From: an uncultured Ignavibacteria bacterium
GTDB lineage: Bacteria; Bacteroidota; Ignavibacteria; UBA10030; UBA6906
Assembly (NCBI GenBank): GCA_963780165.1
Contig: CAWABB010000001.1
Coordinates: 2,219,591-2,283,590, forward strand
Length of the DNA stretch: 64,000 bases
Direction of reading: 5' to 3'
Shown: positions 6,607 through 22,162 of the stretch, one piece after another
Layout of the letters: every line of letters starts with the position of its first letter
Position numbering within the stretch: the stretch's first letter is position 1
The notes under the pieces: generated by a model
The model's input: only the letters and a program-made list of their open reading frames with translations
The model's database searches: none
Told to the model about the DNA's origin: nothing
Made by a program: the position numbers and the translations under genes

Positions 6607-6790
6607 GCACTGTGGAGCGCCCTGCGTCGGGGGAGAGAGTGACCATTATGGGACTCCTTGTGACCGTTTGTGATGAGCCAATGTATCGAACCATGCTCCG
6701 AATGTCAAGGGAACGCGGCCCCGGAGCGGTGCGCAGCTGGCGCGAGCAGAGGTTTGTCATTCAGAGGGTGAAGTGGTATATTTATTTTCT

Positions 6791-8518
6791 ATGGACATGC
6801 ACAGAGTGCGGATCACGCTTGTCGCTGGCGTGACGGCGATGATGATCAGTGGGTGCGGGAGCGGTCAGGCGGTTGCACCGCAGTCTCCGCCAGGCGCCGA
6901 GCGCACGCGGGCGCAGCAGGAGGCGATGTCGGAGGCGGCTCTCGGGCACCTCGTCGACGGATCGGTCTATGAACTTCAGGGCGACTGCGCGCGCGCGGTC
7001 CTGGAGTATCAGGACGCGCTCCGGTACGCCGCCGACCCTGCCGTCTACTTCGCGCTCGCGAAGTGCTACACCGCGCTCGGCAAGTACTCGCTCGCAATCG
7101 GGGCAGGCCGCGAAGCGGTGGACCGCGCGCCCGACCGCCTCGAGTACCGGCGGATCCTCGCGCAGGCACAGGTCGCGGCGTTCGATATCGACGGCGCGAT
7201 CGCCCAGTATAACGAGATCGTCACACGAGACTCGAGCGCGGCGGACGCATGGTTCGCCCTTGCGCGGCTCTACCAGGCCCGCAAACCCCTGCAGGCGCTC
7301 GAGATCTACGAGGAGATCCTCCATCGGTTCGGACCGGAATGGGAAGTCCTCCTCCAGATCGCCGAGCTCCGGTCACGCATGGGCCAGCATGAGCAGGCGG
7401 CCGAAGCCCTGGCGGAACTGTCCAGCCTCGATCCAGCAAACCAGTCCCTCCGCAAGAGTCTCGCGCAGGCATATGTCCGCGCCGGACAGCTCGACTCCGC
7501 GTACGCGCTGTATACGGAGTTGCTCGAGCGCGATCCGGGCAACCTGGAGTACACGACGGAACGCGCCGGTGTCCTGCTCCTGCAGCACGACTATGTGGGC
7601 GCATCCCGCGCGTTCGACGACGTGCTGTCGCGCGACAGCGTCACCGTCGACCTCAAGGTGCATATCGGCGAGCTGTATTTTGCGCAGCTGGACAAGGATT
7701 CCACGCTCGTGCCCCTGACGCGTTCGCTCTTCGAGCGGATCCGGGAGAAGCATCCCGACGATTGGCGGGCGTACTTCTATCTTGGCGCGATCGGATCGAT
7801 GTCCGGCCAGGACAGCACTGCGGTCAGCAATTTCAGGCGCGTCACCGAGCTGGCAGCGTGGAACGCCGACGCCTGGGTCTACCTGTCGACCGCGTATCTC
7901 GGGAAGAACAAATTCGACGAAGCGGTGCGCGTGCTGGAACCGGCCGTGAAGGCGGTGCCCGACGACTTCCGGGTGAACTTCTTCCTGGGGGTTGCCTACA
8001 ACCGGCTGAACAGGCAGACCGACGCCGTGCGCGTGCTGGAACGCGCCAGGAGTATCGATCCGACGAACATCGATGCCGCCGCGCAGCTTGCCATGGTGTA
8101 CGACGGCCTCAAGATGTATGAGGAATCTGACAGTCTCTACGAGATCGCGCTGCGGCTCCGCCCCGACTACCCGCTGGTGCTGAACAACTTCGCCTACAGT
8201 CTGGCCGTGCGCGACATGCAGCTCGAACGGGCCCTCGGGATGTCCCAGAAGGCTGTGGGCATCGAACCGGAAAATGCGTCATATCTGGACACGATCGGCT
8301 GGATCTATTTCCGCCTCGGCCGCTATCCCGAGGCGGAGGAGAACATTGCCCGCGCGCTCGCAAAGGGCGAGGCGAACGCCGAAGTGCTGGAGCATATGGG
8401 GGATGTGCAGTACAAGTTGAACCGGCCGGACCAGGCCATGGAGTACTGGCGCCGTGCGCTCGAGCTGACCCCCGAGAACGCGACGCTCAAAGAGAAGGTG
8501 TCGCGCGGAACACTATGA
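6791..8518 (+). CDS. TPR-repeat lipoprotein (first gene of the TPR–DUF4292–M23 cluster)
   Basis: Signal/lipobox MHRVRITLVAGVTAMMISGC, followed by more than 10 TPR-like helical repeats. The stop overlaps the next start (8515/8518). Confidence 0.75.
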   Translation: MDMHRVRITLVAGVTAMMISGCGSGQAVAPQSPPGAERTRAQQEAMSEAALGHLVDGSVYELQGDCARAVLEYQDALRYAADPAVYFALAKCYTALGKYSLAIGAGREAVDRAPDRLEYRRILAQAQVAAFDIDGAIAQYNEIVTRDSSAADAWFALARLYQARKPLQALEIYEEILHRFGPEWEVLLQIAELRSRMGQHEQAAEALAELSSLDPANQSLRKSLAQAYVRAGQLDSAYALYTELLERDPGNLEYTTERAGVLLLQHDYVGASRAFDDVLSRDSVTVDLKVHIGELYFAQLDKDSTLVPLTRSLFERIREKHPDDWRAYFYLGAIGSMSGQDSTAVSNFRRVTELAAWNADAWVYLSTAYLGKNKFDEAVRVLEPAVKAVPDDFRVNFFLGVAYNRLNRQTDAVRVLERARSIDPTNIDAAAQLAMVYDGLKMYEESDSLYEIALRLRPDYPLVLNNFAYSLAVRDMQLERALGMSQKAVGIEPENASYLDTIGWIYFRLGRYPEAEENIARALAKGEANAEVLEHMGDVQYKLNRPDQAMEYWRRALELTPENATLKEKVSRGTL

Positions 8519-9303
8519 CCTGGCGGATGGCGTTGCGGGCGGCATGGCTGGCGCTGCCACTCCTGGTGACTGCCTGCGGCACAACCCGCGAGGGGCTCGT
8601 CCTTGATACCGGGCGCGTGCCCGCCGATGAACTGATCGAGCGTGTCCGCGAAGCATCGGAGAGGGTGCGGACGATCGCCGGCTCCGGGACGCTGGTCTTT
8701 GACAGCCCGCGGGTGAGCGGCTCGGCGGAGTTTACGCTCGCACTGCACAAGCCCGACTCCTTGCTCGTCAGGCTGGAGGGGCCGTTCGGGATGGACGTGG
8801 GATTGCTGTTCATGGACGGCGAAAGCTACGTCGCGTACAACAGCCTGGAGAACGAAGTGATCGTCGGGGCGTCCGACAGCGCTGCCTTGCGCGCGCTGAT
8901 CCCGGTCCCTCTCTCTCCAGCCCAGATCGTCAATGCGTTCTCCGGACGGTATCCGATCGATCCCGACGCGCGCGTTCTCCGGTACGGCATCGACGATGAC
9001 CGCTTCCTCCTGACGGCGCTGTGCGGAACGGACACCTGCCGGTACTGGGTCGATCCCGAGGCGCTCGTTGTGACGTCATACCGGCGCACGGGGCCCGACG
9101 GCCGCGTGGTCCTCGAGGGGGAGCTGACGAAGTTGACGACCATCGACGACATCCAGCTTCCGCGCAGCATTGTCCTGCGTGCACCGTCGCGCCGATCCAC
9201 CCTGCACATCCTCTTTGCGGACCTTGATGTCAACGGGGACGCGCCCGACTTCTCCTACACGGTCCCGGCGAACGCACGCCACAGAACCCGCCCGCGTCCA
9301 TGA
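8515..9303 (+). CDS. DUF4292-like (LolB-fold) outer-membrane lipoprotein
   Basis: Lipobox LLVTACG. Size, position between a TPR protein and an M23 peptidase, and sequence character all match the conserved DUF4292 gene of this cluster. Overlaps neighbours by 4 nt on both sides. Confidence 0.6.
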   Translation: MTWRMALRAAWLALPLLVTACGTTREGLVLDTGRVPADELIERVREASERVRTIAGSGTLVFDSPRVSGSAEFTLALHKPDSLLVRLEGPFGMDVGLLFMDGESYVAYNSLENEVIVGASDSAALRALIPVPLSPAQIVNAFSGRYPIDPDARVLRYGIDDDRFLLTALCGTDTCRYWVDPEALVVTSYRRTGPDGRVVLEGELTKLTTIDDIQLPRSIVLRAPSRRSTLHILFADLDVNGDAPDFSYTVPANARHRTRPRP

Positions 9304-10493
9304 GGCTCGCACTGATACTGCTGCTGTCGACACTGGTTGTCCGGCCGGGCACGGCGGGCGAACAGGGCAACGACGACGAGATCAAGAAGCGCCAGGCCGA
9401 GCTGGAAACGCTCCGGGACCAGATCAAGACGTACGAAGAGCGCATCGCCCGACAGACAACGACCGAGTCCACGACCCTGGAGCTGCTTGACTCGTACGAT
9501 AAGAAAGGGACGCTGCTCCGGCGGTTGCTGTCCCAGCTCCGGCGCGAGGAGGTGGAGTTGCAGAAGACTATCGGGACGACGCGCGAGGAGCTGGAGTCGC
9601 TCGGGAGGGAGCTGCAGTTCCTGCGCGACCAATACGCCCGCTACGTCGTGTCAGTGTACGCCGGCGGCCCGGAGCGCGACATGGAGCTGCTACTCGCCTC
9701 ACGCTCCCTGAACCAGGCGTCGATCAGGAACGAGTATCTGAAGCGCTTCGCTGCGCAGCGCAAGGCCGATGTCGGACGCATCCTTGCCAAGCGGAGCGAG
9801 ATCGAGGAAGTCGAGGCACGGGCGCAGCAGGAACTGACCGAGGAGCGGCGGTTGATCGCCGAAAAGGGGGCGGAGGAAGAGCGCCTCGCGTCCCTGGCGG
9901 AAGACCGCCGGACCCTCCTGAACCGCATCCGGCGCGACAAATCGCAGCTGCAGCGCGAAATCGAGCGGAAGAACCGCGCCGCCCGCGACCTGGAGGGCAT
10001 GATCACCCGGCTGATCGAGAGCGAACGCGCCCGCGAAGAGCGGGCGCTGGGGCAAGCGAAGACGCCTCCTACCATCCCTCCCGGCACAGGGTTCGACGCG
10101 CGCAAAGGCAGGTTGCGATGGCCGGTGAGTGAAGGAAGAGTCGTGGCGCGCTTCGGGAATCAACGGCACCCGACGTTGAAGACCGTCACGCAGAATACTG
10201 GGATCGACATCGCGGTCAGGTCCGGCTCCCCCGTGATGGCCGTTGCACGCGGCGAGGTGGCGACAATCTGGTGGCTCCCCTCGTTCGGCAACCTCGTCAT
10301 CCTCAATCATTACGGCGGTTACCGTACGGTGTACTCCCACCTCGAGGAAATTCATGTGGCGGAAGGTCAGGAAGTCGCGGAGGGTGAGGTGATCGGCGAG
10401 AGCGGCGAGTCGGTGGACGGCCCACGACTCCACTTCGAGATCTGGAAGGGGAAAGAGAAACAGAACCCCGAAACATGGCTGAGCGATCGATGA
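9300..10493 (+). CDS. M23/LytM-domain protein with long N-terminal coiled-coil, EnvC-like (degenerate metal site)
   Basis: N-terminal signal plus ~230 aa of heptad-rich coiled-coil. The C-terminal LytM domain reads …TGIDIAV…[13 protein letters not shown]…RLHFEIW. The HxxxD His is replaced (N-T-G-I-D) and the first His of HxH is Arg (RLH). Confidence 0.8.
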
Positions 10494-13168
10494 CGCCCTC
10501 CTGGAAAGCGGTCGCCCTCCCGGCGCTTGTAGCCGTGGCTGCGGGGCTGCTTCTCGTCGCGAGCCTGCCCGCGCTCGAAGACGGCGTGACGCGCGGGAAG
10601 TACGCGGTCCGCGGTCCGATCCCCGCAGACACCAACATCGTTCTCGTGTACATCGACGATCAGGCCGTACAGACACTCGGCTGGCCGGTCCGGCGGAACT
10701 TCTACGCTCTCATGGTCACCGTGCTGCGCGAGCTCAAGGTCCGCGCGATCGGGCTTGAGCCGGTATTCGAGGCCCGCCAGCATGAGTATCTGGAGTACGA
10801 TGACCTCCTTGCGACCGTCAGCGCATCGGCCGGCAATGTCGTCGCGACCTCATACTTCGACAGGGTGTCGATGGAAGGGGCCGAGCTCGAGGCTGACAGC
10901 GTCGGCGGCGGCAGGATGCAGGCCAACGTCCGGCTCGTCGCGATGCGGGGGAAAGGGTATCACGGACCGTTCGACGCGCTGCGCGGGTCCGTCGCTGGCG
11001 TGGGTCACGTCAACTTCACCGAGCGCGGCGACGTTCCGGTGTTCATTCAGACAGGGCTCGACCTGGAGCCGTCGTTCGGCCTCGAGATGCTGAGGGTTGC
11101 GAGCGGCGGGCAGGTGAAGTTTCTCGGGTCGGGGGAGGATGGCCGTCCCGGGATCGATGACGGCCGCGTCATCGTGAGCGGGGACTCCGGCGATCGAGCG
11201 TTTGACGCGCCGGGCGGGATCGTGCGGCTCTCGTATCCGGGCCCCCTGACGTCGTTCACGCGATATCCCTTTCTCGAGGTCCTCAGGTCCTACGACGCCC
11301 TGCGCGCGGACAGGGAACCCGTCCTTCCCGTCGCACGCCTGAAGGACAAGATCGTCCTGGTCGGCCTCCTGGCTGAAGGACGCGGGCAATTTTTTCCCAC
11401 TCCTGTTGATCCGCGAATGCCATCGCTGGCCGTGCACGCGTCGTTTGTCGACAACGCTCTGAACGGACGGCTTCCCACGCCGATCCCATTCTGGCTGCTC
11501 GCGCTCGCGTTGCTGGCGTTTGCCGTCCTCTGCATGCTGGCCGCGACCCGATGTCGTCCGTTGCCGGGCGCCGGACTGATCGCTCTTGCGCTCCTCTCGT
11601 GGGCGGGGCTGTCGCAGGCTCTCTTTGCGGCCGTCTCGATCGTGCTGCCAGTGGTCCCGGCCCTGGTGATTGCCCTCGTGGCCGGCGGGTGGATGCTCGC
11701 ACGGGGTCACAGGGAAACCAGGACCACGGTGACGGCGTTGACAGAAGAGAAGGGCCGGATCCTCGAACAGTTGCGGGATCGCGAGGCGAGAGTCGCAATG
11801 CTCGAGCGCGAACTGGCGGGGGCGGAGAGCTCCGGGGCCGCCGAGCGCACCAGGGAGTTGCTTGAGGAAATCAGGGCGTACAAGTCCGAGATCCGGACCC
11901 TTGCCTCGCGCGCCGACGATATGGAGCCGTACGCCGCAGGCCCCTCCGCGGCAGCCGGCCCTCCTGCCGTGTTCGAAGGGATGGTGTACGCGCAGCACGG
12001 AGCGTTGCGGCAGGTTGTTGAGTTTGTCGGCAAGATCGCGGATAGTACGGCACCCGTCTTGATCCTTGGCGAGAGCGGTACCGGGAAGGAGATGATCGCC
12101 AGGGCGATCCACGCACGGAGCGGCAGGAAGTCCGGCCCGTTCGTTGCGGTCAACTGCGGGGCACTCTCGGAGGGGCTTCTGGAGAGCGAGCTCTTCGGGC
12201 ACGAAAAAGGAGCCTTCACGGGTGCGGTCAAGGACCGGATGGGGCGGTTTGAGCTGGCCCATCAGGGCACCATCCTTCTCGACGAGATCGGGGAGACCAC
12301 CGACGGATTCCAGGTGAAGCTGTTGCGCATCCTGCAGCGCGGCGAGTTCGAGCGCGTCGGCGGAGCGCAGACGCTGCACGCAGATGTTCGCGTCGTCGCC
12401 GCGACGAATCGGAACCTCAAGGAGCTCGTCCGCACAGGGGGATTCCGGGAGGACCTCTTCTACCGGCTGAACGTCCTCACGGTGGAGATCGCTCCCCTGC
12501 GGGAGCGGAGAGAAGACATCCCGTTGCTTGTGCAGCACTTCCTCCGGAGCGAGGGCGATGGGTTGAGCATCTCGCGGAACGTCATGGAAGCGCTCGAAGC
12601 GTACAGCTGGCCCGGGAACATTCGCGAGCTCGAGAGCGCAATCCGGCGGGCCGCGCTGCTTGCGCGCGCGGATCAGCGGTCGATGATCAGCGTGAAGGAC
12701 CTCACGGACGAAGTCGCTGCCGTCGTTCGGGGAAGGGTCCCTCTTGAAGAGCAGATCCTCACAAGCCTGCGTGAGAAAGAGTTTTCGCGCAGCGCCATCA
12801 CGGCCACGGCCACGGAGGTGGGCGGACTCAACCGGGGCACCGTCGCCGAGTATCTCCGCGGCGAAGCAATCCGTGCGTTTGTTGAACACCGGTTCGATGT
12901 GGAGAAGGCCGTCCGTGCGGTGTCGCTTTCGGCTGAGGTGAAGGTCAACGACCGCATCAGGAAACGGCTGATCGACTACCTGGCGAACCTGGTCGAGGCA
13001 CTCGATCGTGGTCGTCCCTGGAACGAGGTGCGTGAGGGATTGAAACCGAAGATGAAGAATCTCCCGCAGCGGTATCACAAGCATCTTGAAGAGGCTGCAG
13101 AGGCGTATTTTCGAGGGCTCTGGCAGCTCCCCGCAGAGCCTTCTGGCGGCCCCGGGGGTTCACTCTGA
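10475..13168 (+). CDS. σ54-dependent enhancer-binding protein with periplasmic CHASE2 sensor domain and transmembrane segments
   Basis: N-terminus is CHASE2-like (…[31 protein letters not shown]…). Three hydrophobic helices ([19 protein letters not shown]…[12 protein letters not shown]…[20 protein letters not shown]), then a coiled-coil. AAA+ σ54 activator core: GESGTGKE, the GAFTGA motif, …[12 protein letters not shown]…[11 protein letters not shown]…, arginine finger. A weak helix-turn-helix-like C-terminus. Overlaps the M23 gene by 19 nt. Confidence 0.85.
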
Positions 13169-13261
13169 AACACGGTAAACCTTTCCATGTCGCGGCGTGT
13201 CCAATATGATAGCGGGAATGAAGAGTCAACTTTTGTGACATTTCTCCAGAGGCCTCTGACC

Positions 13262-13651
13262 ATGCGTACAACCACCTCTTTTCTTAGCGCGCTCGTCCTG
13301 ATTCTTGTCGCTTCCACCCTTGCAGATGCGCAGCCTTCCGGCCCCACCGCGCCACCCGATAGCGCACGGATTGAGCAGACGATTGCCGACATGAAAGCAA
13401 AGGTAAAGATTTCCGACGCTCAGGCGACGAAGATCCGCCCCATTCTCCAGGACAACATGGCTGCCATGCAGAGGGACCGGGCTTCGGGTCAGATGAACCG
13501 CGAGGCGGCCCGGGAGCGGATGCTCGCCATGGACGAGAAGATCAAAGCGGTGCTGACCGCCGAGCAGTTGCCGTTGTACGACAAATACCGCGAGGAGCGG
13601 CGCCAGATGATGCGAGACCGGATGCGTGAGACGCAGGAGAGACCGCAGTGA
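13262..13651 (+). CDS. Small periplasmic Spy/CpxP-family-like protein (LTXXQ motif)
   Basis: Signal MRTTTSFLSALVLILVASTLADA. A helical, charged protein with LTAEQLPLY (LTXXQ) and a similar …ISDAQATKIRPIL… element. Start taken at an internal Met of ORF 13187. Confidence 0.5.
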   Translation: MRTTTSFLSALVLILVASTLADAQPSGPTAPPDSARIEQTIADMKAKVKISDAQATKIRPILQDNMAAMQRDRASGQMNREAARERMLAMDEKIKAVLTAEQLPLYDKYREERRQMMRDRMRETQERPQ

Positions 13652-15096
13652 AGAGAGCAGTGATTGTCGCCGCCGCGGTCGTCGTTGTTGCGGTCGGAGC
13701 CTGGGTTGTCTTCGGGGTCGGGCGAAATGACGCTGAGCCGACCTCGCCGGCCAGCCAGCTGCAACGGGAGGCAAGGCTCGTTCGGGGGGATCTCGAGTTG
13801 ACCGTCTCTGCCGACGGCGTCGTGCAGCCGATCAACAAGGTCGAAGTGAAATCAAAAGCGAGCGGCCAGATTCTGGAACTGAACTTCGTCGAAGGGCAGG
13901 AGGTCACGAAAGACGAGCTGCTGATCGCCCTCGATCAAAGGACGGCGCTCAACGATTATGAGCAGGCGAAGGCGGATCTCGAGCTCGCTCAGGCGAACGC
14001 CGCCCAGCAGGAGAACAACTACCGGCGCTCCGGTGAGCTGTTCGAAAAGCACATGATCTCCCAGCAAGAGCTGGATCTGGCGAACGTCGAGTTCGTGCGG
14101 GCCAAGTCGTCGCTCGTCAAGGCCCGCGCGGCGCTGTCGTCGGCCGACGAGCGCCTGCGCGACACGCGGATCCGCGCGCCCATCACGGGGATCATCCTCA
14201 CGAAGAATGTGGAGATCGGGCAGATCATCTCTTCGGGTGTGTCGAACGTGGGCGGGGGATCGTTGCTTGCGACCCTTGCCGACATGACGCAGGTGTACGT
14301 CGAGACGAATGTGGACGAAGTGGACATCGGCCGGGTTGCCGTAGGGCAGACTGCAAAGGTCGTGGCGGACGCGTATCCGGACGATGCATTCACGGGCGAA
14401 GTGATCCGGATCGCGCCCCTCGGCAAAACTGCGCAGAATGTGACGGTGTTCAGCGTCATCATCCTGGTGAAGAACCGCGGCGGGCGGCTCAAGGCCGGGA
14501 TGAGCGCGTCGGTGGACATCGAGATCTTCCGACGTCAGAATGTGCTCCTGGCTCCCAATGAAGCTCTCATCGATCCGAAAAGCGAGCAGGGACGCGAGCT
14601 GATAGCCTCACACGCGGAAGGGAATGGCGGTAGTGTCGATTCGGCCGGCGGGCTGCAGGCGCCACCCGCGGGCATGATGCCGGATCCGGGATCGTTCAGG
14701 GAGCGGATGCAGTCGATGTCGCCCGAGGAGCGTGAGAAGATGCGTGAGGAATTCCGGAAGCGGGTGGAGCAGATGTCGCCGGAGGAGCGCGAGCGCTTCC
14801 GCGCCATGCGCGGAGGTGGAGGAGGCGAGGGCGGAAGCCCCGGCCGCAGATCGGGCCAGGCTCCACGGCAGGAGGAAGCGCGGCGCAGGCTCGTGCTGGT
14901 CCGCGACTCGAGCGGGTTTTCCCCCAGGATGGTCAGGGTTGGCGTGGCCAACTACGACTACAGCGAAGTACTCGAGGGCCTGCGCGAAGGCGACGAAGTC
15001 CAGATCACGACAGTCTCGCGCGCGAAACAGGATGCCGAAGCCTTCAATGAACGCATGAGAAGCAGGCAGGGTATGGGAGGAGTCCGCGTCCGGTGA
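13648..15096 (+). CDS. Efflux periplasmic adaptor subunit (HlyD/MacA family) with C-proximal SPEERE-repeat insert
   Basis: GTG start overlapping the upstream stop. TM anchor, coiled-coil hairpin (…DLELAQANAAQQENNYRRSGELFEKHMISQQELDLANVEFVRAKSSL…), β-barrel and MP domains. An insert repeats MSPEEREKMREEFRKRVEQMSPEERERFRAMRG. Confidence 0.85.
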   Translation: MKRAVIVAAAVVVVAVGAWVVFGVGRNDAEPTSPASQLQREARLVRGDLELTVSADGVVQPINKVEVKSKASGQILELNFVEGQEVTKDELLIALDQRTALNDYEQAKADLELAQANAAQQENNYRRSGELFEKHMISQQELDLANVEFVRAKSSLVKARAALSSADERLRDTRIRAPITGIILTKNVEIGQIISSGVSNVGGGSLLATLADMTQVYVETNVDEVDIGRVAVGQTAKVVADAYPDDAFTGEVIRIAPLGKTAQNVTVFSVIILVKNRGGRLKAGMSASVDIEIFRRQNVLLAPNEALIDPKSEQGRELIASHAEGNGGSVDSAGGLQAPPAGMMPDPGSFRERMQSMSPEEREKMREEFRKRVEQMSPEERERFRAMRGGGGGEGGSPGRRSGQAPRQEEARRRLVLVRDSSGFSPRMVRVGVANYDYSEVLEGLREGDEVQITTVSRAKQDAEAFNERMRSRQGMGGVRVR

Positions 15097-16310
15097 AAGC
15101 AGGAGAGAGCTTCGCTACCGCCTTCCGGGCCATCCTGGCGAACAAATTCCGGGCGCTCCTGACGATGCTGGGGATCATCATCGGCGTTGCCGCCGTGATC
15201 ACAATGATCGGCATCGGGGAGGGAGCTCAGCAGGCCGTGGTGGAGCGCATTCAGTCGCTCGGGTCGAACCTCCTCTTCATCTCGCCCGGAGTGCACCGGG
15301 AAGGCGGTTCTCCCGTCACGCAGGCGGGCTCAAGCGTTCGCCTGAAGGTGAAGGATGCCGACGCCATCCGGGAGCAATCCACGTACGTGGATGCGGTCGT
15401 TCCGGAGCTCTCCCGACAGGCCCAGGTGAAGTACGAGAATCGAAACTGGGGCACCAGAATCATCGGTACTGTCCCGGAGTACGAATCCGTCCGCAGCTTC
15501 CGGGCCGTCCGCGGCAGGTTCTTCAGCCATTCGGAAGAGCGTGGGGTCGCGAAGGTCTGCCTTCTCGGGGCGACCGTCGCCGAAACCCTCTTCCCCGAGA
15601 GCGACCCCCTCGGCGCGCAGATTCGTATCCAGGGACAGACCTTCACCGTCATCGGACTCCTGGAAAGCAAGGGGCAAAGCGGGTGGCAGAATCCGGACGA
15701 CCAGATCATCGTTCCCCTCTCGACGGCCCAGCGCCGTCTCTTCGGTCTCGACTATCTCTCCCAGATCACTGTTCGCGCGCCGAGCGACAAGATGATGGAC
15801 AAGGCGTTCCTGGACATCGAGCGGATCCTCCGGAGGGAACACAGGCTCCGCCCGGAGTGGGACAACGATTTCACCATCAGGAACCAGGCGGATATCATTC
15901 AGACGTTCCAGGAAACGCAGGAAACGTTCACGCTGCTGCTCGCGGGAATCGCCGCCGTGTCGCTGGTCGTCGGCGGCATCGGCATCATGAACATTATGCT
16001 GATTTCGGTCACCGAACGCACGCGTGAGATCGGGATCAGGAAGGCCGTCGGTGCACGGAAGCGGGACATCATGCTCCAGTTTCTGATCGAGTCCGTCGTG
16101 CTGAGCGTGGCCGGAGGAATTATCGGCATCGGGGTCGGCATCGCCGCGTCGTTTGTGATCACCAGGTACGGCGAATGGAATCCGATTATCTCTCCGAACT
16201 CCATTGTGCTCAGCTTCCTCTTTGCCTCGTTCGTCGGGATTTTTTTCGGACTGTACCCCGCATGGAAAGCTGCGATGTCCGACACCATCGAGGCGCTGCG
16301 CTATGAATAG
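15093..16310 (+). CDS. ABC transporter permease, MacB/FtsX family (permease only, no fused ATPase)
   Basis: TM1 LLTMLGIIIGVAAVITMIG, a large periplasmic domain, then 3 C-terminal TMs containing the FtsX motif region …ERTREIGIRKAVGARKRDI…. Confidence 0.85.
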   Translation: MKAGESFATAFRAILANKFRALLTMLGIIIGVAAVITMIGIGEGAQQAVVERIQSLGSNLLFISPGVHREGGSPVTQAGSSVRLKVKDADAIREQSTYVDAVVPELSRQAQVKYENRNWGTRIIGTVPEYESVRSFRAVRGRFFSHSEERGVAKVCLLGATVAETLFPESDPLGAQIRIQGQTFTVIGLLESKGQSGWQNPDDQIIVPLSTAQRRLFGLDYLSQITVRAPSDKMMDKAFLDIERILRREHRLRPEWDNDFTIRNQADIIQTFQETQETFTLLLAGIAAVSLVVGGIGIMNIMLISVTERTREIGIRKAVGARKRDIMLQFLIESVVLSVAGGIIGIGVGIAASFVITRYGEWNPIISPNSIVLSFLFASFVGIFFGLYPAWKAAMSDTIEALRYE

Positions 16311-17091
16311 TGCAACCGGCGCATCAGGCACGACGCCCTCGCGGCAACCGGTCAGCGCGGTCATCATCACGATGAATGAGGGGGTGAACATCGAGCGCTG
16401 CCTCGACTCCGTCCGGTGGTGCGACGAGATCGTTGTGGTCGACTCCGGTAGCTCGGACGCCACCGTCGGGATCGCACGGCGGTACGGGTGCCTCGTGTCG
16501 ATTCGACCGTTTACCGGCTACGGTGACCAGAAGCAGTTCGCCGTCGACCAGGCGTCGCACGATTGGATCCTCAGCATCGATGCCGATGAAGTGATCACTC
16601 CCGGACTTCGCGATGAGCTGCTCGCGTTTCTGGGGATGGGGAGCGCGGATGCCGCGGGCGTGGAGATTCCGCGCACGATGGTGTTTCTCGGCCGGGAATT
16701 CAAGCGCGGCGCGGAACATGCTTCCCCGCTGCTCAGGATGTTCCGGCGTTCGCTGGGGGGGTTCACGTCGGCCGCGGTTCACGAGCGGATCGATGTGCGG
16801 GGAAAGGTGACGCGCTGCGGCGGGGAGATGCTTCACTACAGCTATGTCTCGATCGAACAGTATCTTCAGAAGTTCAACGCTTACACAACGGCGGCCGCGC
16901 GGATGCAGCATGCGCAGGGCAATCGCGCCTCCGTGGCCTCGATCGCGCTGGCGTTTCCTCTCGGCTTCGTCAGGCAGTATTTCCTCAAGGGCAACTTCCT
17001 GAACGGCTATCCCGGGTTTCTCTGGGCGTTCCTCTCGGCCGTCTATCCGGTCGTGAAGTACGCGAAGCTCCGGCAACTCTCCCGCACGTAA
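16303..17091 (+). CDS. Glycosyltransferase family 2
   Basis: VSAVIITMNEGVNIERCLDSV…VVDSGSSDAT…DADE (DxD). ATG at 16303 overlaps the MacB stop. Confidence 0.8.
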   Translation: MNSATGASGTTPSRQPVSAVIITMNEGVNIERCLDSVRWCDEIVVVDSGSSDATVGIARRYGCLVSIRPFTGYGDQKQFAVDQASHDWILSIDADEVITPGLRDELLAFLGMGSADAAGVEIPRTMVFLGREFKRGAEHASPLLRMFRRSLGGFTSAAVHERIDVRGKVTRCGGEMLHYSYVSIEQYLQKFNAYTTAAARMQHAQGNRASVASIALAFPLGFVRQYFLKGNFLNGYPGFLWAFLSAVYPVVKYAKLRQLSRT

Positions 17092-17342
17092 GGCCCCGCC
17101 CGGGGGCGTGTCTTCTCTACCGACATTGTTCGGTCATCGGTCTCCGGCCTTCAGGGGATGAGGGTGCCCTGTCACCTCTCTCGGGCATCCCATCGCTTCC
17201 GCGGGGTTTTTGGGCGTCCCGCACTTCGTCTGCCACTTCCCGCAGTTCGCCGGGCCTCCAGTGACCCCCCGCGCAACGCAAAACGGCTGTAACTCATTTA
17301 CCGGAAAAGGGTTGTCCGGGTCACGCCACCGGTCCACATCTC

Positions 17343-17358
17343 TGGCACGGCCATTGAA
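17343..17358 (+). promoter_or_regulatory. Candidate σ54 −24/−12 element (TGGCACG-N4-TTGA)
   Basis: TGGCACGgccaTTGAa has correct spacing, a perfect −24 box and a GA instead of GC at −12. It lies ~80 nt upstream of the ATG at 17440. Confidence 0.3.
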
Positions 17359-17439: not shown

Positions 17440-18438
17440 ATGAGCAAGCGCGGAGAGCTGTGGACGCTGGCAGGTCTGGCCGTGATGGGCCTTCTGATTG
17501 CCGGCTGTTCTGACAACCAGACCGGGCCTGGGGACGGCGGTGCGGCTCCGCTGGGGGTGACCACCGAAAAGCAGGCAATCGAGTATTACGCGGTGAACGA
17601 CGGCTTTGTCGCGAACGATGAAGAGACCTTCGCAGACCGCGAAGTGACACCTGTCGACGCCGGCTCGTTTGGAAAGATTGATGCCGCGGTAACGCCGATC
17701 CGGTTCGCCAGGGTCATCACGGGCATCACGAAGACTGTGGAGACCACGTTCGAGCCCGGCGATGAGGTCGCGATCGCGCATATCACGAAGGACATCACGG
17801 GCATCTTCAAGATTCTCGTCGTGACGGCGGAGAACGAAACGCTGATGGTGGAAAAACCGTTCAACGACGTGTCCGAACGCAACGTGGTGTTCAAGCGTCT
17901 CGCACGCAACCCGAACCGCTTCTGGCAGAACTGGATGCCGGTCTCGTCGTCGCTCGTGAGAGGCGAAACGATGCCCCCGAACAATTCCATCACGATCAAG
18001 CAGCTGGAGTTGATCACGGGGGACACCACGATCGTGATCACCGACCCGCTCGAGCATTACCTGTACTACGGTTGGATGGGGCAGCACCAGCTTCGCGCCG
18101 GCTTGAGGAAGTGTATGGTCCCAGAGCTGGTTGGCGGCCAGGAGGTGCGTATCCGCGTGACACTTGAGAGCACGTCGCCTGATACCGACTTCGTTGCGGT
18201 CCGATATGGCTTCAAGAACCTGAATTGGAAGAGGTTCCCGATGACCATGGTGGAGCAGCTGCAGAGCGGCGACGTGTACACGCGTGTCTACGAAACGGTC
18301 CGGGATCATCCGCTCTTCATGCACTACCACCGCGGCTGGTTCAACCTTGGGATCGACGCGGTGACGCATGAAACCCTGTTCGACGATCAGGCTCCGTATT
18401 CCGCGAGCTGGTGGGGGGTCCCGTACAGGGTTCTCTAG
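17440..18438 (+). CDS. Hypothetical lipoprotein (first gene of the uncharacterised envelope cluster)
   Basis: MSKRGELWTLAGLAVMGLLIAGCSDN (lipobox). High GC3 on this strand. The long opposite-strand ORF 17134..18555 is judged spurious. Confidence 0.7.
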   Translation: MSKRGELWTLAGLAVMGLLIAGCSDNQTGPGDGGAAPLGVTTEKQAIEYYAVNDGFVANDEETFADREVTPVDAGSFGKIDAAVTPIRFARVITGITKTVETTFEPGDEVAIAHITKDITGIFKILVVTAENETLMVEKPFNDVSERNVVFKRLARNPNRFWQNWMPVSSSLVRGETMPPNNSITIKQLELITGDTTIVITDPLEHYLYYGWMGQHQLRAGLRKCMVPELVGGQEVRIRVTLESTSPDTDFVAVRYGFKNLNWKRFPMTMVEQLQSGDVYTRVYETVRDHPLFMHYHRGWFNLGIDAVTHETLFDDQAPYSASWWGVPYRVL

Positions 18439-18460
18439 AGTCGCCGCCGGTCTGCGCAAC

Positions 18461-18555: not shown

Positions 18556-19443
18556 ATGAAACGCGCGCGCGACATTCTATCGACCCTCACCATCGTTCTC
18601 CTGACGGGATGCCAGCAGCCATCCGACATCGTGGTGGCCCCTGCATCGGCCGACCAGGCCAGCGTGGAAATTGTCCCGGTCGTCGTTCCGGACACCGCCT
18701 CGTCAGGCGCGTGGTCCGATTCGACTGCTCTCTTGCCGCAGGAACAGTCGCTGCGAGGCGGATCGTTCCTGCTGAATCGGGTGACCCACGATACCGGAAC
18801 GGGCAGCGTGAAATTCGCGTTTGCGCACGCCTTCTTTGCCGACAGCGCCGTGCAGATGTGGGGCAAGAACTGCGGGTTCAGCGGGCGCGATCTCGGGGCG
18901 ATCGCCTTCGACGGGGGGCTGATGCTCCGATACCCTCACGTACTCCACGCCAGGACGAACCTCGGCATCGATACCGCCCTGGCACGCGGCGTTGCCTATA
19001 TCTCCAATGGGACCCAGACGTACGCGCCAAACCGCGAGTTCTCCTGGGTGCTCAATCCTGCGGGCAATCATTTCGTGACGGTGTCGGTCAGGACGCCCGA
19101 CGACCTGGTGGTGCGTGCGCCGCTCGGGGGGACTCGTGTGTCCAGAACCCAGGACCTCGAGCTGCGGTGGACAGGGGCGAACGGCAGGATGGACATCGTG
19201 ATCAGCACCTATGAGCCGATGCGGCGTAAGAGCCGCCCGATTCTCACGCTGAATCCGCCTGCAAGCGCGGGACGTGTTGTGCTTCCAGCGCGGCTTCTCT
19301 CGGGCCTGCCTGCGACAGCCCGGTTCTATATCATCACGTTCATCCTCTCGAATCGCACGGAATCGATCTCTGTGCCGCAGTATCCGGCGCGGGTGTTCGC
19401 CCGGGCGGCCGACGTCTACAACAGCTACGTCGAGATCCGGTGA
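18556..19443 (+). CDS. Hypothetical lipoprotein
   Basis: MKRARDILSTLTIVLLTGCQQ (lipobox). Its stop overlaps the next start (ATGA at 19440–19443). Confidence 0.65.
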   Translation: MKRARDILSTLTIVLLTGCQQPSDIVVAPASADQASVEIVPVVVPDTASSGAWSDSTALLPQEQSLRGGSFLLNRVTHDTGTGSVKFAFAHAFFADSAVQMWGKNCGFSGRDLGAIAFDGGLMLRYPHVLHARTNLGIDTALARGVAYISNGTQTYAPNREFSWVLNPAGNHFVTVSVRTPDDLVVRAPLGGTRVSRTQDLELRWTGANGRMDIVISTYEPMRRKSRPILTLNPPASAGRVVLPARLLSGLPATARFYIITFILSNRTESISVPQYPARVFARAADVYNSYVEIR

Positions 19444-21449
19444 GAGTAGCGGCAGCGATCATCCTGACGGGGTGTGTGATGGGAATCCGAGGGGAGGTCC
19501 TGAGCCAGTCGTTGTCAGATGCGCGCGCCGTCGGTGTGGGCGCATACGCGCCGCTGGCCAGCGACAGCCGGGCTTTCTCGATCAATCCCGCGGGGCTTGC
19601 GGGAGTCCGCGACTGGGAGACCGCGTTCGGCACGTACTTGACGACGACCAGCTCAGACGCCGGTTTTGTCTTTCATGGATTGACGCTCGCCAAGCGCTTC
19701 GGCGACTTCTCCGCCGCCTTTCAGTACTCCCCGGGGACCTCGGTGCGGTTCGTCGTCCCCCCGACGCTGGTGATCGGCCAGTCTGACAACCCCTCCAGGA
19801 ACGACCAGACCATCGAGTACTCCGAACCATTTGCGCTCGGTCTATCATACCGGTTGAGTGATCGCATTGTGGTCGCGCTCGGTGGCCGCAACCGGCGCGA
19901 GATCGTTGACGATACGCGGTATGAGATTGTGCTGAATGACACCGTGGCGATTCCGGTCATCTACCAGACGACGTCGGAGGCACGCTACTGGAACGTCGAT
20001 GCCGCGCTTGCATGGACGCCATCGCAGGCCGTTTCTGTGTCGCTCCTCGGACGGAATATCATCGCTTCGCTGGGCAGTGATCTCCCTGAGGCCATCGACA
20101 GCCTTGCCCTGAGCACCCATGCAATCGGGGAGCTTGGACTTGCGGTCCGACCTGCAAGGAAGATTGCGCTCGCGGCGGCGATCACCACCGACGTGACAGG
20201 GGGAGCAGGCGCGGAGTGGACGCCCGGTCTCGGCCTCGCGTTCCGTGGAGGGCTCTACTTCGATGACGACGGCGCCCCATTCGTGAATGCCGTGGCTGTG
20301 GGAGTGGGTTGGTCCTACGAATTTGTGGAGATCGGGGCCGGGTATCTGCACTTCCTTGACCAGACCGGCAGGCAGGGCTCGACGGAGGGGACCGCGTTCG
20401 ATCCGTCCGGGATTTCGACCATTGATATGAACCCATATTCAAGTGACCGGATTGCGATCTCCGTGAAGGCCATGTTCGGGCAGATCCGTGAAAGCCTTGC
20501 CCGGATTGAGGGAGTGAAGGTGACCAGCGTGGTGTATCCGGCCTCGGCGGCGACGCTCGCCTTCAAGCCCATAGGTACGGCCCAGATACGCAACGTCAGT
20601 GACCGGCAGATTCAGGCGAAGGCGTCGTTCTACGTCGAACGATACATGGATGAGCCGACTGAAACACTGCCTGTCACGCTCCAGCCCGGGCAGGTGGTGG
20701 AAGTGCCCCTGACCGCGCTCTTCAACGACCAGGTCCGCCGCGTCTCAAGTCAGGCGCTTCGGGACGCAACGGTTACCGTGATTGCCACGCCGTCCGGAGA
20801 GCAGGATGACACATTCCAAACGCGCATCCTGATTCAGGGAAAGAATGCATGGGACGGCGACGTGCTCTCTCTCAGGTACTTCGTGACGCCGGACGATCCC
20901 GCTGTCATCAAGTACACGAGGGATGTGCTTGTTCAATCCCGTGATTCGCTCGCGAATGTGAACCGCTCGCTCGAGCAGTTCGTGAAGGCGCGCGTGCTGA
21001 TCGACACGTTCGGCGGCGGGCTGACATATATCGGGGATCCGCGGCAGAGTGCGGACCATGTGCAGTATCCGTCGGAAACGCTCGCGCTCAGGAGCGGCGA
21101 CTGCGACGACATGACGGTCTGCTTTGCGTCCCTGCTGACGAGCATCGGCATCCCGGTGGCGTTTGTGGATGTTATTCCCCCGGGACGGCCCGAGGAGAGC
21201 CACATCTATCTGCTCTTCGATACCGGCGTGGAGCCGAGGTTCGGATCCAGTATTGCTGACAATCCAAAACGCTATGTCGTCCGCGCCACGCGGGAAGGGA
21301 AGGAGACCGTCTGGGTTCCGATCGAGACGACGGTCATTGCCGAGGGATTCAAGGAGGCATGGGACCGCGGAGCACAGGAATATTATGAACACGTCGAGGT
21401 CGGCCTCGGGCTTGTGAAGGGCTGGGTCCGGATCGTGGACGTCTATTGA
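19440..21449 (+). CDS. Fusion protein: N-terminal FadL/PorV-like outer-membrane β-barrel region + C-terminal transglutaminase-like cysteine-protease domain
   Basis: Signal MRVAAAIILTGC. N-terminus …AYAPLASDSRAFSINPAGLAGV… carries an NPA motif and alternating amphipathic β-strands. C-terminus …LRSGDCDDMTVCFASLLTSIGIPVAFVDV…ESHIYLLFDTG… is a transglutaminase-core-like Cys…His arrangement. Stop overlaps the next start. Confidence 0.55.
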   Translation: MRVAAAIILTGCVMGIRGEVLSQSLSDARAVGVGAYAPLASDSRAFSINPAGLAGVRDWETAFGTYLTTTSSDAGFVFHGLTLAKRFGDFSAAFQYSPGTSVRFVVPPTLVIGQSDNPSRNDQTIEYSEPFALGLSYRLSDRIVVALGGRNRREIVDDTRYEIVLNDTVAIPVIYQTTSEARYWNVDAALAWTPSQAVSVSLLGRNIIASLGSDLPEAIDSLALSTHAIGELGLAVRPARKIALAAAITTDVTGGAGAEWTPGLGLAFRGGLYFDDDGAPFVNAVAVGVGWSYEFVEIGAGYLHFLDQTGRQGSTEGTAFDPSGISTIDMNPYSSDRIAISVKAMFGQIRESLARIEGVKVTSVVYPASAATLAFKPIGTAQIRNVSDRQIQAKASFYVERYMDEPTETLPVTLQPGQVVEVPLTALFNDQVRRVSSQALRDATVTVIATPSGEQDDTFQTRILIQGKNAWDGDVLSLRYFVTPDDPAVIKYTRDVLVQSRDSLANVNRSLEQFVKARVLIDTFGGGLTYIGDPRQSADHVQYPSETLALRSGDCDDMTVCFASLLTSIGIPVAFVDVIPPGRPEESHIYLLFDTGVEPRFGSSIADNPKRYVVRATREGKETVWVPIETTVIAEGFKEAWDRGAQEYYEHVEVGLGLVKGWVRIVDVY

Positions 21450-22162
21450 AGAGGGAGCAGCCAATGAAACGACTTGCGATCTTCGTTGTATCCGCATTCC
21501 TGACGGCGCAAGCCTCGGGCGAGGGTATCACCGTGCAGAGCGCCAGGGGGGAGGTCAGCGTGCGCCACGGCGTCACAGAATCCTGGATGCCCGTCGGAGC
21601 CGGCGATCTCCTGCGGTCGCACGACAGCATGAAAACCGGCGGGAGCGGTGCGGCCGTGCTCTCGGTAGCAACGGCGTCCGGCGCGAAAACCATCACGCTT
21701 CCGTCTGAAGTCATCGTCGACATATCGGATATCCGGGACCTCTCGCAGGAGGAGCTGATGCTGAAGCTCACGATGGAGAAGGTGCGCGGATCGGGCTATC
21801 AATGGGACGAATCGGACCCCTCGATTCCGAATGCCGGCGTAATTCACGGAACGAACAAAGGGGCGGCTCGCGAGCTGACCGAAAACAAGCTCCGGACAGG
21901 GCGGATGCAGCTGAACGGTGCGCGGGTGCTGTTCGAGAACGGGTTCTTTTCCACGTGTGTCCTGCGGTCGATGGAAGTCTTCCGACTCTACCCGGATCTC
22001 AGCAGGTCGTTCGAGGACCGGCTCATGGTGGCCCGGGCACTTGAGCGTGCGAAGTTGACCGGGGAGGCCCTCTCGGAATACGGCGCAATGGCGGGCTTTG
22101 AAGGCCTTACGGCCCAGCAGCAGGCGCTCGTCCGGGAGCAGATGCAGGCTCTGCGCAAGTAG
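21446..22162 (+). CDS. Secreted FecR-domain-like protein
   Basis: Signal MKRLAIFVVSAFLTAQA. …GEVSVRHGVTESWMPVGAGDLLRSHDSMKTGGSGAAVLSVATASGAKTITLPSEVIV… resembles the FecR β-sandwich. Confidence 0.45.
   Translation: MKREQPMKRLAIFVVSAFLTAQASGEGITVQSARGEVSVRHGVTESWMPVGAGDLLRSHDSMKTGGSGAAVLSVATASGAKTITLPSEVIVDISDIRDLSQEELMLKLTMEKVRGSGYQWDESDPSIPNAGVIHGTNKGAARELTENKLRTGRMQLNGARVLFENGFFSTCVLRSMEVFRLYPDLSRSFEDRLMVARALERAKLTGEALSEYGAMAGFEGLTAQQQALVREQMQALRK

Follow-up and report, generated by a model that had tools for sequence, protein, structure and literature searches.

The open reading frame at 10475-13168 of the window (the whole 64-kb stretch of DNA that was analysed) encodes a bacterial enhancer-binding protein (bEBP), here called EBP, that is integral to the membrane and of the one-component type, its input sensor lying in the same polypeptide as its σ54 activator core. 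Comparison of about 80 related metagenome loci suggests that EBP most likely switches on a conserved four-gene operon, gA-gD, located at 17440-22162 of the window. The CHASE2–σ54 architecture represents a conserved family that is unnamed and uncharacterised.

Architecture of the enhancer-binding protein

The sequence-only reading had described a complete σ54 activator with a CHASE2 and transmembrane (TM) input, and Pfam matches, motifs and hydropathy all agree with it. From its N-terminus, the protein runs through TM1, CHASE2 in the periplasm, a further three TM helices and a helical linker to the σ54 AAA+ core, a helix-turn-helix (HTH) and a helical extension.

10490..13168, + strand: CHASE2–σ54 enhancer-binding protein (EBP) gene, likely ATG start; longest ORF 10475..13168, 897 aa
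10508..10573, + strand: TM1, residues ~12-33 of the 897-aa ORF (hydropathy)
10574..11533, + strand: periplasmic CHASE2, residues 34-353 (PF05226, E 4e-32)
11486..11698, + strand: hydrophobic block read as TM2-TM4, residues ~338-408 (hydropathy)
11717..11944, + strand: charged helical (coiled-coil-like) linker, residues ~415-490 (sequence and conservation)
11990..12721, + strand: σ54-interaction AAA+ core and lid; Walker A at 12068-12091, GAFTGA at 12209-12226
12728..13165, + strand: C-terminal DNA-binding region; HTH at ~12743-12886 and a family-specific helical extension of ~90 aa

The CHASE2 match (E 4.2e-32, 112 bits, Pfam cutoff 26.3) recurs in all homologs, and the hydrophobic block is kept hydrophobic in all of them. 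One TM helix precedes CHASE2 and three follow it, and hydropathy therefore predicts an extracytoplasmic CHASE2 and a cytoplasmic AAA+ core. The linker is probably the element that transmits the signal and controls assembly. The core matches Sigma54_activat (PF00158) over residues 506-670 (E 1.3e-67, 227 bits, cutoff 20.2) and AAA_lid_14 over residues 676-749 (E 1e-19). The Walker A motif, GESGTGKE, is at residue 532; GAFTGA follows at 579, the ILLDE of Walker B at 600 and FREDLFYRL, with the arginine fingers, at 657. The full length of the protein is conserved across 21 aligned homologs (48-92% identity), among which G579, F581, T582, G583, A584, R658 and R664 are invariant. Pfam gives no Response_reg (REC) match in EBP, the N-terminus being occupied by CHASE2 and TM helices. 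NCBIfam equivalogs such as NtrC, ZraR and AtoC align to the AAA+ core only, far below their cutoffs.

C-terminal DNA-binding region

The earlier impression that the C-terminus is only weakly HTH-like by sequence is borne out. Pfam finds no HTH_8 match in EBP; a confident structural model reveals an NtrC/Fis-like HTH with a novel extension. For the C-terminal 146 aa, AF2 (pLDDT 91.5) models a Fis/NtrC-like three-helix HTH, resembling the DNA-binding domains of NtrC1 and NtrC4, and a helical extension of ~90 residues that has no structural match. The BurrH/TALE-like and TetR matches of the HTH segment are weak and were read as generic helix-turn-helix resemblance. This domain is the most family-specific part of EBP and among its best conserved, the motif GGLNRGT.AE.LRG being near-invariant. 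At 50% identity it falls into no fewer than 256 clusters, and all 10 sampled proteins that carry it, the most distant included, combine CHASE2 with Sigma54_activat. Hence, the domain appears to be confined to the CHASE2–σ54 architecture.

Gene start and upstream operon

EBP is the last gene of an operon encoding a TPR lipoprotein, a LolB-like DUF4292 protein and an EnvC-like protein.

6754..6782, + strand: σ70-like promoter TTGTCA-17-TATATT, 5' of the TPR gene (consensus scan only)
6791..8518, + strand: TPR lipoprotein, opening the operon that EBP closes
8515..9303, + strand: DUF4292 protein, LolB-like, with a sub-threshold NCBIfam LolB1_Flavo match
9300..10493, + strand: EnvC-like coiled-coil/LytM (M23) protein with degenerate Zn ligands

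The ATG at 10490 is probably the true start of EBP, because M6 is where the aligned homologs begin. The overlap of 19 nt that had been noted before with the M23 gene is true of the longest ORF (M23 stop at 10493), but the likely start shortens it to 4 nt (ATGA); an overlap of 4 or 19 nt is also seen in three other loci (L081-L083). The proposed co-transcription of EBP with the TPR–DUF4292–M23 genes is supported by this conserved stop/start overlap and by synteny. The M23 gene lies immediately 5' of EBP in 35 of 39 loci, and all three genes are upstream in 26 of 29. The site at 6754..6782 is likely the promoter of the whole operon. A search 5' of the TPR operon for a σ54 promoter or repeat, which would indicate autoregulation, found none; the few TGGTATATTTTTTG[AC] matches there resemble housekeeping −7-type promoters.

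The Pfam DUF4292 match of the 8515..9303 protein clears its cutoff. Its alignment with LolB1_Flavo is full-length (26 bits, E 5.7e-6) but below the cutoff of 50, and the protein is best called LolB-like rather than a demonstrated LolB. The M23 protein (PF01551, E 5e-28) aligns with the NCBIfam EnvC model over residues 32-394, below cutoff. Inspection finds NTGID in place of HxxxD and RLHFE in place of HxH; together with the N-terminal coiled coil, such degenerate Zn ligands in a LytM domain are those of an EnvC/NlpD-type protein.

Candidate enhancer, σ54 promoter and target operon

The conserved partner of EBP is a downstream operon, absent from the sequence-only reading. The gene immediately 3' of EBP is gA in 55 of 67 loci, and three or more of gA-gD are found downstream in 27 of 28.

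17216..17249, + strand: candidate enhancer (UAS), direct repeat TTCCCGCACTTC-N9-TTCCCGCAGTTC with half-sites 21 bp apart; core TTCCCGCA-N13-TTCCCGCA at 17216-17244
17343..17357, + strand: σ54-type −24/−12 promoter TGGCACGGCCATTGA, 5' of gA
17440..18438, + strand: gA, lipoprotein of ~330 aa belonging to no known family; opens the σ54 operon
18556..19443, + strand: gB, lipoprotein of ~295 aa without known family
19479..21449, + strand: gC, secreted, ~656 aa, PorV-like outer-membrane barrel and transglutaminase/LapG-like Cys protease domain
21464..22162, + strand: gD, secreted, 232 aa, N-terminal β domain and C-terminal TPR-like helices

Lipoboxes are present in gA and gB. The N-terminal half of gC is the barrel, and its C-terminal protease domain has invariant Cys, His and Asp; the fusion of a barrel with a transglutaminase-like protease is unusual. 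A signal peptide and a β+TPR fold are found in gD. Its assignment as a FecR-domain protein was rejected, since only 1 of 28 members matches FecR (E 0.12) and the fold searches are dominated by the TPR half.

The −12 element in the window is TTGA, not TTGC. Taken alone, the −24/−12 site of the window is not above chance, and its support is wholly comparative. Comparison provides candidates for what is expected of a bEBP, a cognate −24/−12 promoter and an upstream enhancer: the strict pattern TGG[CT]A[CT]-N5-TTG[ACT] occurs 5' of gA in 56 of 68 loci (it is absent there in the other 12), and the repeat occupies a fixed position in 53 loci. This pattern has 73 matches on both strands of 863 kb, 46 of which sit 77-156 nt 3' of the repeat. 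The repeat itself, as CCCGCA-N14-16-CCCGCA, occurs 54 times in the same 863 kb, against a chance expectation that we estimate at ~1.5, and 53 of these occurrences fall on the + strand in the slot between EBP and gA (or gA's position). In the window, exact TCCCGCANTTC is found at 17217 and 17238 only. The match TGGCACAGCCATTTC, at window position 34392, belongs to a DUF1800-like coding sequence, where it encodes FWHSHF, and was read as coincidence. The repeat stands ~100-125 bp 5' of the −24 element, which is a typical enhancer distance.

A distant low-GC relative (L165), whose C-terminal domain is 32% identical and which has no TPR, DUF4292 or M23 genes, shows the same arrangement. Here TTCCCGCAT-N12-TTCCCGCAT is followed by TGGTACGGCTGTTGC and directly downstream by a barrel and transglutaminase gene, the gC counterpart, annotated OMP_b-brl and Transglut_core. 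This relative also retains R-x-T-[VI]-x-E-x-[LF]-R-G, the motif of the recognition helix. From such co-conservation, the C-terminal domain of EBP probably binds the repeat. For HTH dimers of the NtrC type, direct repeats would be an unusual target.

Proposed mechanism

We consider it probable that EBP is a membrane-integral one-component bEBP that acts through the repeat on the σ54 promoter of gA-gD. A periplasmic or envelope cue would act on CHASE2, and the TM bundle and coiled-coil linker would relay the signal, freeing the AAA+ domains to form an active ring; such linker-controlled assembly would be analogous to that of NtrC1 and DctD. The C-terminal domain would bind the two same-face direct repeats, and the ring, by DNA looping, would remodel Eσ54 at the −24/−12 promoter and turn on gA-gD. 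Tethering of the activator to the membrane presumably explains why its target adjoins the EBP gene.

The envelope products of gA-gD may in turn feed back on the sensor, as in known CHASE2 systems, where the partner is an outer-membrane barrel, NsrA, or a FecR/LysM protein of the periplasm (PMC13001267; PMC5192318). A partner of the EBP sensor may be gC or gD. A more speculative extension, which we hold to be doubtful as a whole, is a self-contained trans-envelope σ54 circuit. It would join the membrane-embedded EBP, same-face repeats, the new HTH-plus-extension domain and activation in cis, with the gA-gD products forming the outer part of the sensor and closing a feedback loop on CHASE2. If true, this would be the first defined envelope-integrity input for CHASE2, and it would demonstrate that bEBP rings can assemble, and DNA can loop, at the membrane.

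The Spy-like/MacA/MacB insertion and alternative explanations

Between EBP and its presumed target, the window carries a lineage-specific insertion that lies outside the conserved system.

13182-13210: σ70-like site between EBP and the Spy-like gene (consensus scan only)
13262..17091, + strand: insertion with Spy-like, MFP, MacB-type permease and GT2 genes
13262-13651, + strand: weakly Spy-like periplasmic protein
13648-15096, + strand: MFP
15093-16310, + strand: MacB-type permease
~16303-17091, + strand: GT2 glycosyltransferase
17093..17107, + strand: terminator-like GC hairpin, 3' of the GT2 gene (consensus scan only)

Because of the insertion, the target is 4 kb from the EBP gene in the window. 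The hairpin may mark off the σ54 unit from the transcription unit that precedes it. The sequence-only reading had placed EBP directly upstream of a Spy-like/MacA/MacB envelope module and suggested an envelope-sensing σ54 regulon. The neighbours are as described and the idea of such a regulon is upheld in spirit, but the module is not the conserved partner, and the regulon is most likely gA-gD. It is very improbable that the module is itself the regulon, with EBP turning on an efflux pump and a chaperone of the periplasm in the manner of Zra or Cpx. The Spy-like gene does begin ~95 nt past the EBP stop, its product has some similarity to Spy, and MacB-type permeases (COG0577) are enriched among the predicted σ54 targets in Bacteroidia (PMC12316311), which would suit such a circuit. 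However, the module sits between EBP and the downstream operon in only 7 of 67 loci, and there the repeat and σ54 promoter stay with gA, 3' of the insertion. No −24/−12 site or repeat was found between EBP and the Spy-like gene in the six loci inspected, and no σ54 promoter 5' of the Spy-like or MFP genes; the gap in the window contains the σ70-like site instead. The Spy-like protein itself reaches only a sub-threshold NCBIfam Spy match (E 4.7e-5, 23.7 bits, cutoff 174), with no match in Pfam. Three loci (L127, L135 and L138) do have a small periplasmic protein, CpxP/Spy-like by eye, with its own σ54-type promoter 3' of gD, but it has no detectable homology to the Spy-like protein of the window.

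Two further explanations concern how EBP would reach its promoter. EBP could be an inactive membrane precursor from which cue-triggered proteolysis frees a soluble AAA+–HTH fragment, an ordinary cytoplasmic bEBP. Proteolytic release of membrane-tethered regulators is an established mechanism (anti-σ and RIP systems), a soluble protein would ease hexamer assembly and looping, and a long conserved linker of ~80 residues lies between TM4 and the AAA+ core. We regard this as unlikely, given that no site-2-type protease is conserved nearby and that the catalytic residues of the neighbouring M23 protein are degenerate; the strict adjacency of gene and target is what a membrane-retained regulator would be expected to show, though it is compatible with cleavage. 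Alternatively, the repeat could be the site of another regulator, or an RNA or DNA element, with EBP activating from the membrane without specific DNA binding or having its targets elsewhere. The missing HTH_8 match and the direct orientation of the repeats, atypical for NtrC-like dimers, lend this some plausibility, and so does the existence of activators that need no enhancer binding, for example FlgR and CtcC, which have no DNA-binding domain. Against it stand the family-specific C-terminal domain with its invariant motif and NtrC/Fis-like HTH, the typical enhancer distance, and the joint occurrence of repeat, promoter and EBP in 53 loci and in L165, which differs in neighbourhood and base composition. 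We consider this explanation highly unlikely, and the membrane-integral bEBP acting through the repeat is preferred.

Family size and literature

The architecture had been thought uncommon. It is indeed uncharacterised, but the family is large: metagenomes yield at least 139 clusters of it when grouped at 90% identity, and no fewer than 256 at 50%. Where the source names them, the MAG labels are Bacteroidota or Ignavibacteria. A further set of loci (L001-L080), retrieved through generic AAA+ motifs, holds unrelated bEBPs and was left out of the comparison. The claim that CHASE2 is not a described bEBP input agrees with the literature searched, in which no paper was found that pairs CHASE2 or membrane anchoring with σ54 or a bEBP. 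The top-ranked CHASE2 literature describes only cyclases, GGDEF proteins, kinases, metacaspases and HD-GYP proteins as outputs. No ORF with an RpoN box was found in the window or in any locus retrieved; σ54 is presumed in this genome from the conserved promoter and the phylum only, σ54 being functional in Bacteroidota (PMC12316311).

Comparison with known systems

Like bEBPs of the NtrC1/DctD/ZraR type, EBP has a complete σ54 AAA+ core and lid with a helical linker N-terminal to the core, a C-terminal three-helix HTH, and a −24/−12 target with an element ~100-125 bp upstream. Unlike them, it has neither a receiver domain nor a partner kinase, and carries CHASE2 and four TM helices in the same polypeptide; its HTH is missed by HTH_8 and bears the ~90-aa extension, and the candidate enhancer is a direct rather than an inverted repeat. 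Textbook bEBPs are soluble regulators, controlled through receiver, GAF, PAS or V4R domains or by partner proteins. An AAA+ activator that is a polytopic membrane receptor therefore raises the question of how ring assembly, enhancer binding and Eσ54 contact take place at the membrane.

The arrangement of a TM helix, CHASE2 and three TM helices is shared with CyaD1, CyaD2 and CyaK of S. meliloti and with a CHASE2 histidine kinase of Burkholderia, one TM before and three after CHASE2 being the layout of the CHASE2 kinase (PMC5192318). These receptors are likewise linked genetically to a barrel (NsrA there, gC here) or to proteins of the periplasm (LysM/FecR in those systems, gD in this one). The output of EBP differs, as a σ54 AAA+ activator is absent from the top-ranked CHASE2 literature. 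In EBP, CHASE2, a sensor whose ligands are largely unknown, gains a new output class.

ToxR, CadC and TcpP also combine a periplasmic sensor, an anchor and a DNA-binding output in one protein, with a target that adjoins the regulator gene. They are single-pass, σ70, OmpR-type winged-helix activators, whereas the output of EBP comes from an AAA+ machine, driven by ATP, which has to oligomerise and to work on Eσ54.

The envelope stress systems ZraSR–ZraP and Cpx/Spy resemble the predicted EBP circuit in the σ54-dependent control of envelope proteins by an extracytoplasmic cue. Because the EBP system comes with a predicted enhancer, promoter and four-gene target, it is directly testable in any cultivable member. 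The genes gA-gD define four uncharacterised envelope families, apparently widespread in environmental Bacteroidota with EBP. In contrast to ZraSR and Cpx, EBP is a single component, and its predicted target operon encodes two lipoproteins, a fusion of barrel and transglutaminase, and a β+TPR protein rather than a ZraP/Spy chaperone.

Domain Architecture and Family

The enhancer-binding protein (EBP) is encoded by the following reading frame.

10475-13168, + strand: EBP open reading frame, 897 aa

Pfam places CHASE2 at residues 34-353 (E 4e-32; 112 bits vs a gathering score of 26), Sigma54_activat at 506-670 (E 1e-67) and AAA_lid_14 at 676-749. HTH_8 gave no Pfam match on the protein, and residues 750-897 carry no Pfam domain. 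The motifs Walker A GESGTGKE (532), GAFTGA (579), Walker B ILLDE (600) and FREDLFYRL (657) are intact. By hydropathy, one TM helix spans about 12-33, and the hydrophobic stretch 338-408 was taken to be three further TM helices; this layout predicts a periplasmic CHASE2 and a cytoplasmic portion from about residue 410 onward, in which residues 415-490 form a conserved charged helical linker. Pfam, motifs and hydropathy confirm the sequence-only reading of a complete σ54 activator with CHASE2/TM input. The 19-nt overlap with the upstream M23 gene described there holds for the longest reading frame and not for the likely start: the aligned first residue of the homologs is M6, so the EBP probably begins at ATG 10490, in an ATGA overlap with the M23 stop. 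Such a stop-start overlap was seen again in the three loci with gene calls. NCBIfam equivalogs (NifA, AtoC, NorR, NtrC, ZraR, PspF and others) matched the AAA+ core only and far below their cutoffs, which sets the EBP outside every named subfamily of bacterial enhancer-binding proteins (bEBPs).

With a word-indexed search, the family came to at least 139 clusters at 90% identity. The full-length homologs listed (834-900 aa, 48-92% identity over at least 94% of the query) all contain CHASE2 and Sigma54_activat; their names in the sources are generic, and only a few bear an organism label, that of a Bacteroidota, Bacteroidetes or Ignavibacteria MAG. In an alignment of 21 members the whole length is conserved, linker included. 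Judged from these homologs, the architecture is a conserved family and not a one-off fusion.

The Predicted C-Terminal DNA-Binding Domain

The 21-member alignment shows conserved C-terminal stretches, namely a motif starting FSRS..TA. followed by about 100 more residues including AEAYFRGLW. The last 146 residues were modelled with AlphaFold2 from a 16-sequence alignment; the model is confident (pLDDT 91.5, pTM 0.84) and has eight helices. A sequence-profile search of the PDB gave weak HTH-level matches only, to a TetR regulator (E 0.003) and BurrH repeats. An HMM of the domain, run exhaustively against 1.84 billion representative proteins, found 256 clusters at 50% identity; its full-length matches span 790-910 aa and end in the domain, and 10 of 10 sampled proteins, the weakest matches included, carry CHASE2, Sigma54_activat and the lid. 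From model and survey, the domain is a predicted diverged Fis-type HTH with a family-specific extension, confined to the CHASE2-σ54 architecture.

Within the HTH segment (12743-12886), L.EKGFSRS.v.etA.elGG resembles the repeat unit of Burkholderia TALE-like BurrH. The summed E value of 0.002 comes from 16 weak repeat matches, and the resemblance was read as generic helix-turn likeness.

Gene Order and the Downstream Operon

Gene order was compared in three homolog loci (48-92% identity) and in 80 metagenome loci specific to the family, which were collected by means of the C-terminal domain, counting only loci where the contig leaves room. By tblastn the order is fixed: FBPase, a BamD/YfiO-like TPR gene (− strand), TPR lipoprotein, DUF4292, M23, EBP, and four downstream genes, gA, gB, gC and gD. 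The M23 gene lies immediately 5' of the EBP gene in 35/39 loci, and TPR, DUF4292 and M23 are complete in 26/29. Downstream, gA follows the EBP gene immediately in 55 of 67 loci, and at least three of gA-gD are found in 27 of 28.

5876-6782 region, − strand: BamD/YfiO-like TPR gene, conserved, divergent from the TPR operon
6708-6680, − strand: σ70-like promoter, back-to-back with the next
6754-6782, + strand: σ70-like promoter TTGTCA-17-TATATT, preceding the TPR gene

No conserved σ54-type site was found before the TPR gene. NCBIfam LolB1_Flavo aligns with the whole of the DUF4292 protein, at a score below cutoff; LolB1 is an outer-membrane lipoprotein insertase in Bacteroidota (PMC11885536). 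The M23 protein (9300-10493) has a coiled coil of about 230 aa, and its Zn ligands are degenerate by inspection (NTGID for HxxxD, RLHFE for HxH), which suggests an EnvC/NlpD-like activator and not an active peptidase.

17440-18438: gA, lipoprotein with signal sequence and lipobox Cys
18556-19443: gB, lipoprotein with signal sequence and lipobox Cys
19479-21449: gC, signal peptide; N-terminal half and C-terminal domain matched separately

No Pfam or PDB relatives of gA and gB were found. In gC, the N-terminal half contains an NPAGL motif and matches, by profile, the barrel PorV of type IX secretion (6h3i, E 8e-5); the C-terminal domain matches Transglut_core in two orthologs (E 6e-4 and 2e-3) and LapG (4u65) at E 0.02, with Cys542, His575 and Asp581 invariant. 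All four genes are predicted to encode envelope proteins.

Candidate Enhancer and Predicted σ54 Promoter

17216-17249: candidate direct repeat, consensus ttCCCGCACTTC-N9-ttCCCGCA.TT, core TTCCCGCA-N13-TTCCCGCA
17343-17357: predicted −24/−12 promoter TGGCACGGCCATTGA, upstream of gA

CTGGCAC-N5-TTGAA precedes gA in all four loci first inspected, and the strict form TGG[CT]A[CT]-N5-TTG[ACT] is upstream of gA in 56 of 68. Taken alone, the window promoter is not above chance, and its support is comparative. The direct repeat lies about 100-125 bp upstream of the promoter. In 863 kb, on both strands, CCCGCA-N14-16-CCCGCA occurs 54 times vs a chance number estimated at about 1.5 from base composition, and 53 of the 54 are on the + strand in the slot upstream of gA; such a repeat lies 77-156 nt upstream of 46 of the 73 strict promoter matches in the same 863 kb. 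The 64-kb window has exact TCCCGCANTTC at 17217 and 17238 only, and with one mismatch there are 16 matches vs 6.5 ± 2.2 expected.

GGCAGA is conserved 10-13 nt past the −12 element in most loci (for example, L082:12810-12816), close to where transcription is expected to begin; in the window lineage GGGCGCT takes its place (17366-17375). A second σ54-type promoter was noticed downstream of gD in three metagenome loci (L127:16830, L135:6819, L138:15586); one (C)CCGCA half-site stands 40-60 nt before it. The promoter precedes a gene for a secreted K/R/E/Q-rich protein of about 103 aa with two 'LTPxE..L.R.Q' motifs, CpxP/Spy/ZraP-like by eye and absent from the window; BLAST gave no link to the window's Spy-like gene.

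A Distant Relative and the Inserted Module

A distant member of the family, low in GC, is found at the metagenome locus L165; its C-terminal domain, at 32% identity, keeps the recognition-helix motif R-x-T-[VI]-x-E-x-[LF]-R-G. No TPR, DUF4292 or M23 genes lie upstream of its EBP gene. Directly after that gene come TTCCCGCAT-N12-TTCCCGCAT and then TGGTACGGCTGTTGC, followed by genes for a small barrel protein, for a barrel plus Transglut_core protein with 33% identity to gC, and for a protein of 231 aa. This arrangement is the strongest single datum for the proposed EBP-operon link, and suggests that it is the downstream operon to which the EBP is functionally tied, the upstream-cluster link belonging to the main lineage only.

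The sequence-only reading had placed the EBP gene directly upstream of a Spy-like/MacA/MacB envelope module and suggested an envelope-sensing σ54 regulon. That the EBP controls this module, which lies between its gene and gA, is contradicted by synteny and promoter evidence. The module is present in 7 of 67 loci (the window's close relatives, L081 and L084-L088, with L105, L143/L144 and L148), and in these the repeat and σ54 promoter stay directly upstream of gA; neither was found in the short spacer between the EBP and Spy-like genes in the six loci inspected. On this comparison the module is an insertion. The Spy assignment itself is sub-threshold (23.7 bits vs a cutoff of 174).

13182-13210: σ70-like site, EBP/Spy-like region
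17093-17107: terminator-like hairpin, closing the Spy-like/MacA/MacB unit

Other Features of the Window

Many proteins of the window have type IX secretion C-terminal sorting domains, which points to a Bacteroidota/FCB-group genome, consistent with the phylum labels. At least five such genes (22335-25321, 35432-37234, 39961-44024) encode a GSDH-like dehydrogenase, an M28 peptidase, DUF1501, a sortilin/BNR protein and an unknown protein. A DUF1800-like coding region with an FWHSHF motif (34260-35430) pairs with the DUF1501 gene at 35432; simple ORF calling missed it, which may reflect a frameshift or overlapping-ORF artefact. TGGCAC-N5-TTTC inside it was dismissed as a chance match. Positions 25447-30646 hold a large hybrid sensor kinase with Reg_prop β-propellers, Y_Y_Y, HisKA and HATPase, then a small ORF and a fusion of a response regulator to a PP2C/SpoIIE phosphatase; neither kinase nor fusion is conserved with the EBP cluster. 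The gene at 55243-57744 (− strand) joins a GH9 cellulase, which carries a CelD_N Ig-like domain, to a polysaccharide deacetylase domain.

45200-45275, 49997-50199: tRNA genes Pro-TGG, Arg-TCT and Glu-TTC, the sole Rfam or ARAGORN matches in the window

Proposed Mechanism and Comparison with Known Systems

The EBP is rated a membrane-integral bEBP of the one-component type, whose DNA-binding extension is new and whose enhancer and regulon are predicted. What the analysis shows is the architecture with its predicted topology, intact ATPase and σ54-contact motifs, an HTH, and a repeat, promoter and operon that are conserved together. In the proposed mechanism, CHASE2 would sense an envelope or periplasmic cue, and the TM bundle and coiled-coil linker would govern how the AAA+ ring assembles. 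The linker of NtrC1 and DctD keeps the core as an inactive dimer. The C-terminal domains would sit on two same-face half-sites, 21 bp apart, and looping would bring the ring to Eσ54 at −24/−12. The target nearly always abuts the regulator gene, plausibly because the EBP is membrane-tethered. Activation after proteolytic release is improbable, and action without an enhancer is disfavoured, as the conserved DNA-binding domain and the repeat argue against it. No rpoN was found in the window or any fetched locus; σ54 is functional in Bacteroidota (PMC12316311).

Every component class is already known, and the family is abundant in databases. A literature search for CHASE2 or membrane anchoring in combination with σ54 or bEBPs found nothing relevant, and none of the outputs described in the top-ranked CHASE2 literature is a σ54 activator. 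The EBP system is open to immediate testing.

By membership tests the EBP has both the bEBP core and CHASE2; it fails that for NtrC-type response regulators because, unlike them, it has no REC domain. Among published CHASE2 systems, the outer-membrane barrel NsrA is needed by the CHASE2 proteins CyaD1/D2/K (PMC13001267), and another CHASE2 gene lies beside that of a periplasmic LysM/FecR protein (PMC5192318). Where those systems have the NsrA barrel or the LysM/FecR neighbour, the EBP system has gC and gD as candidate counterparts; from these published partners, gC and gD might, speculatively, act as co-sensors and feedback partners of the EBP.
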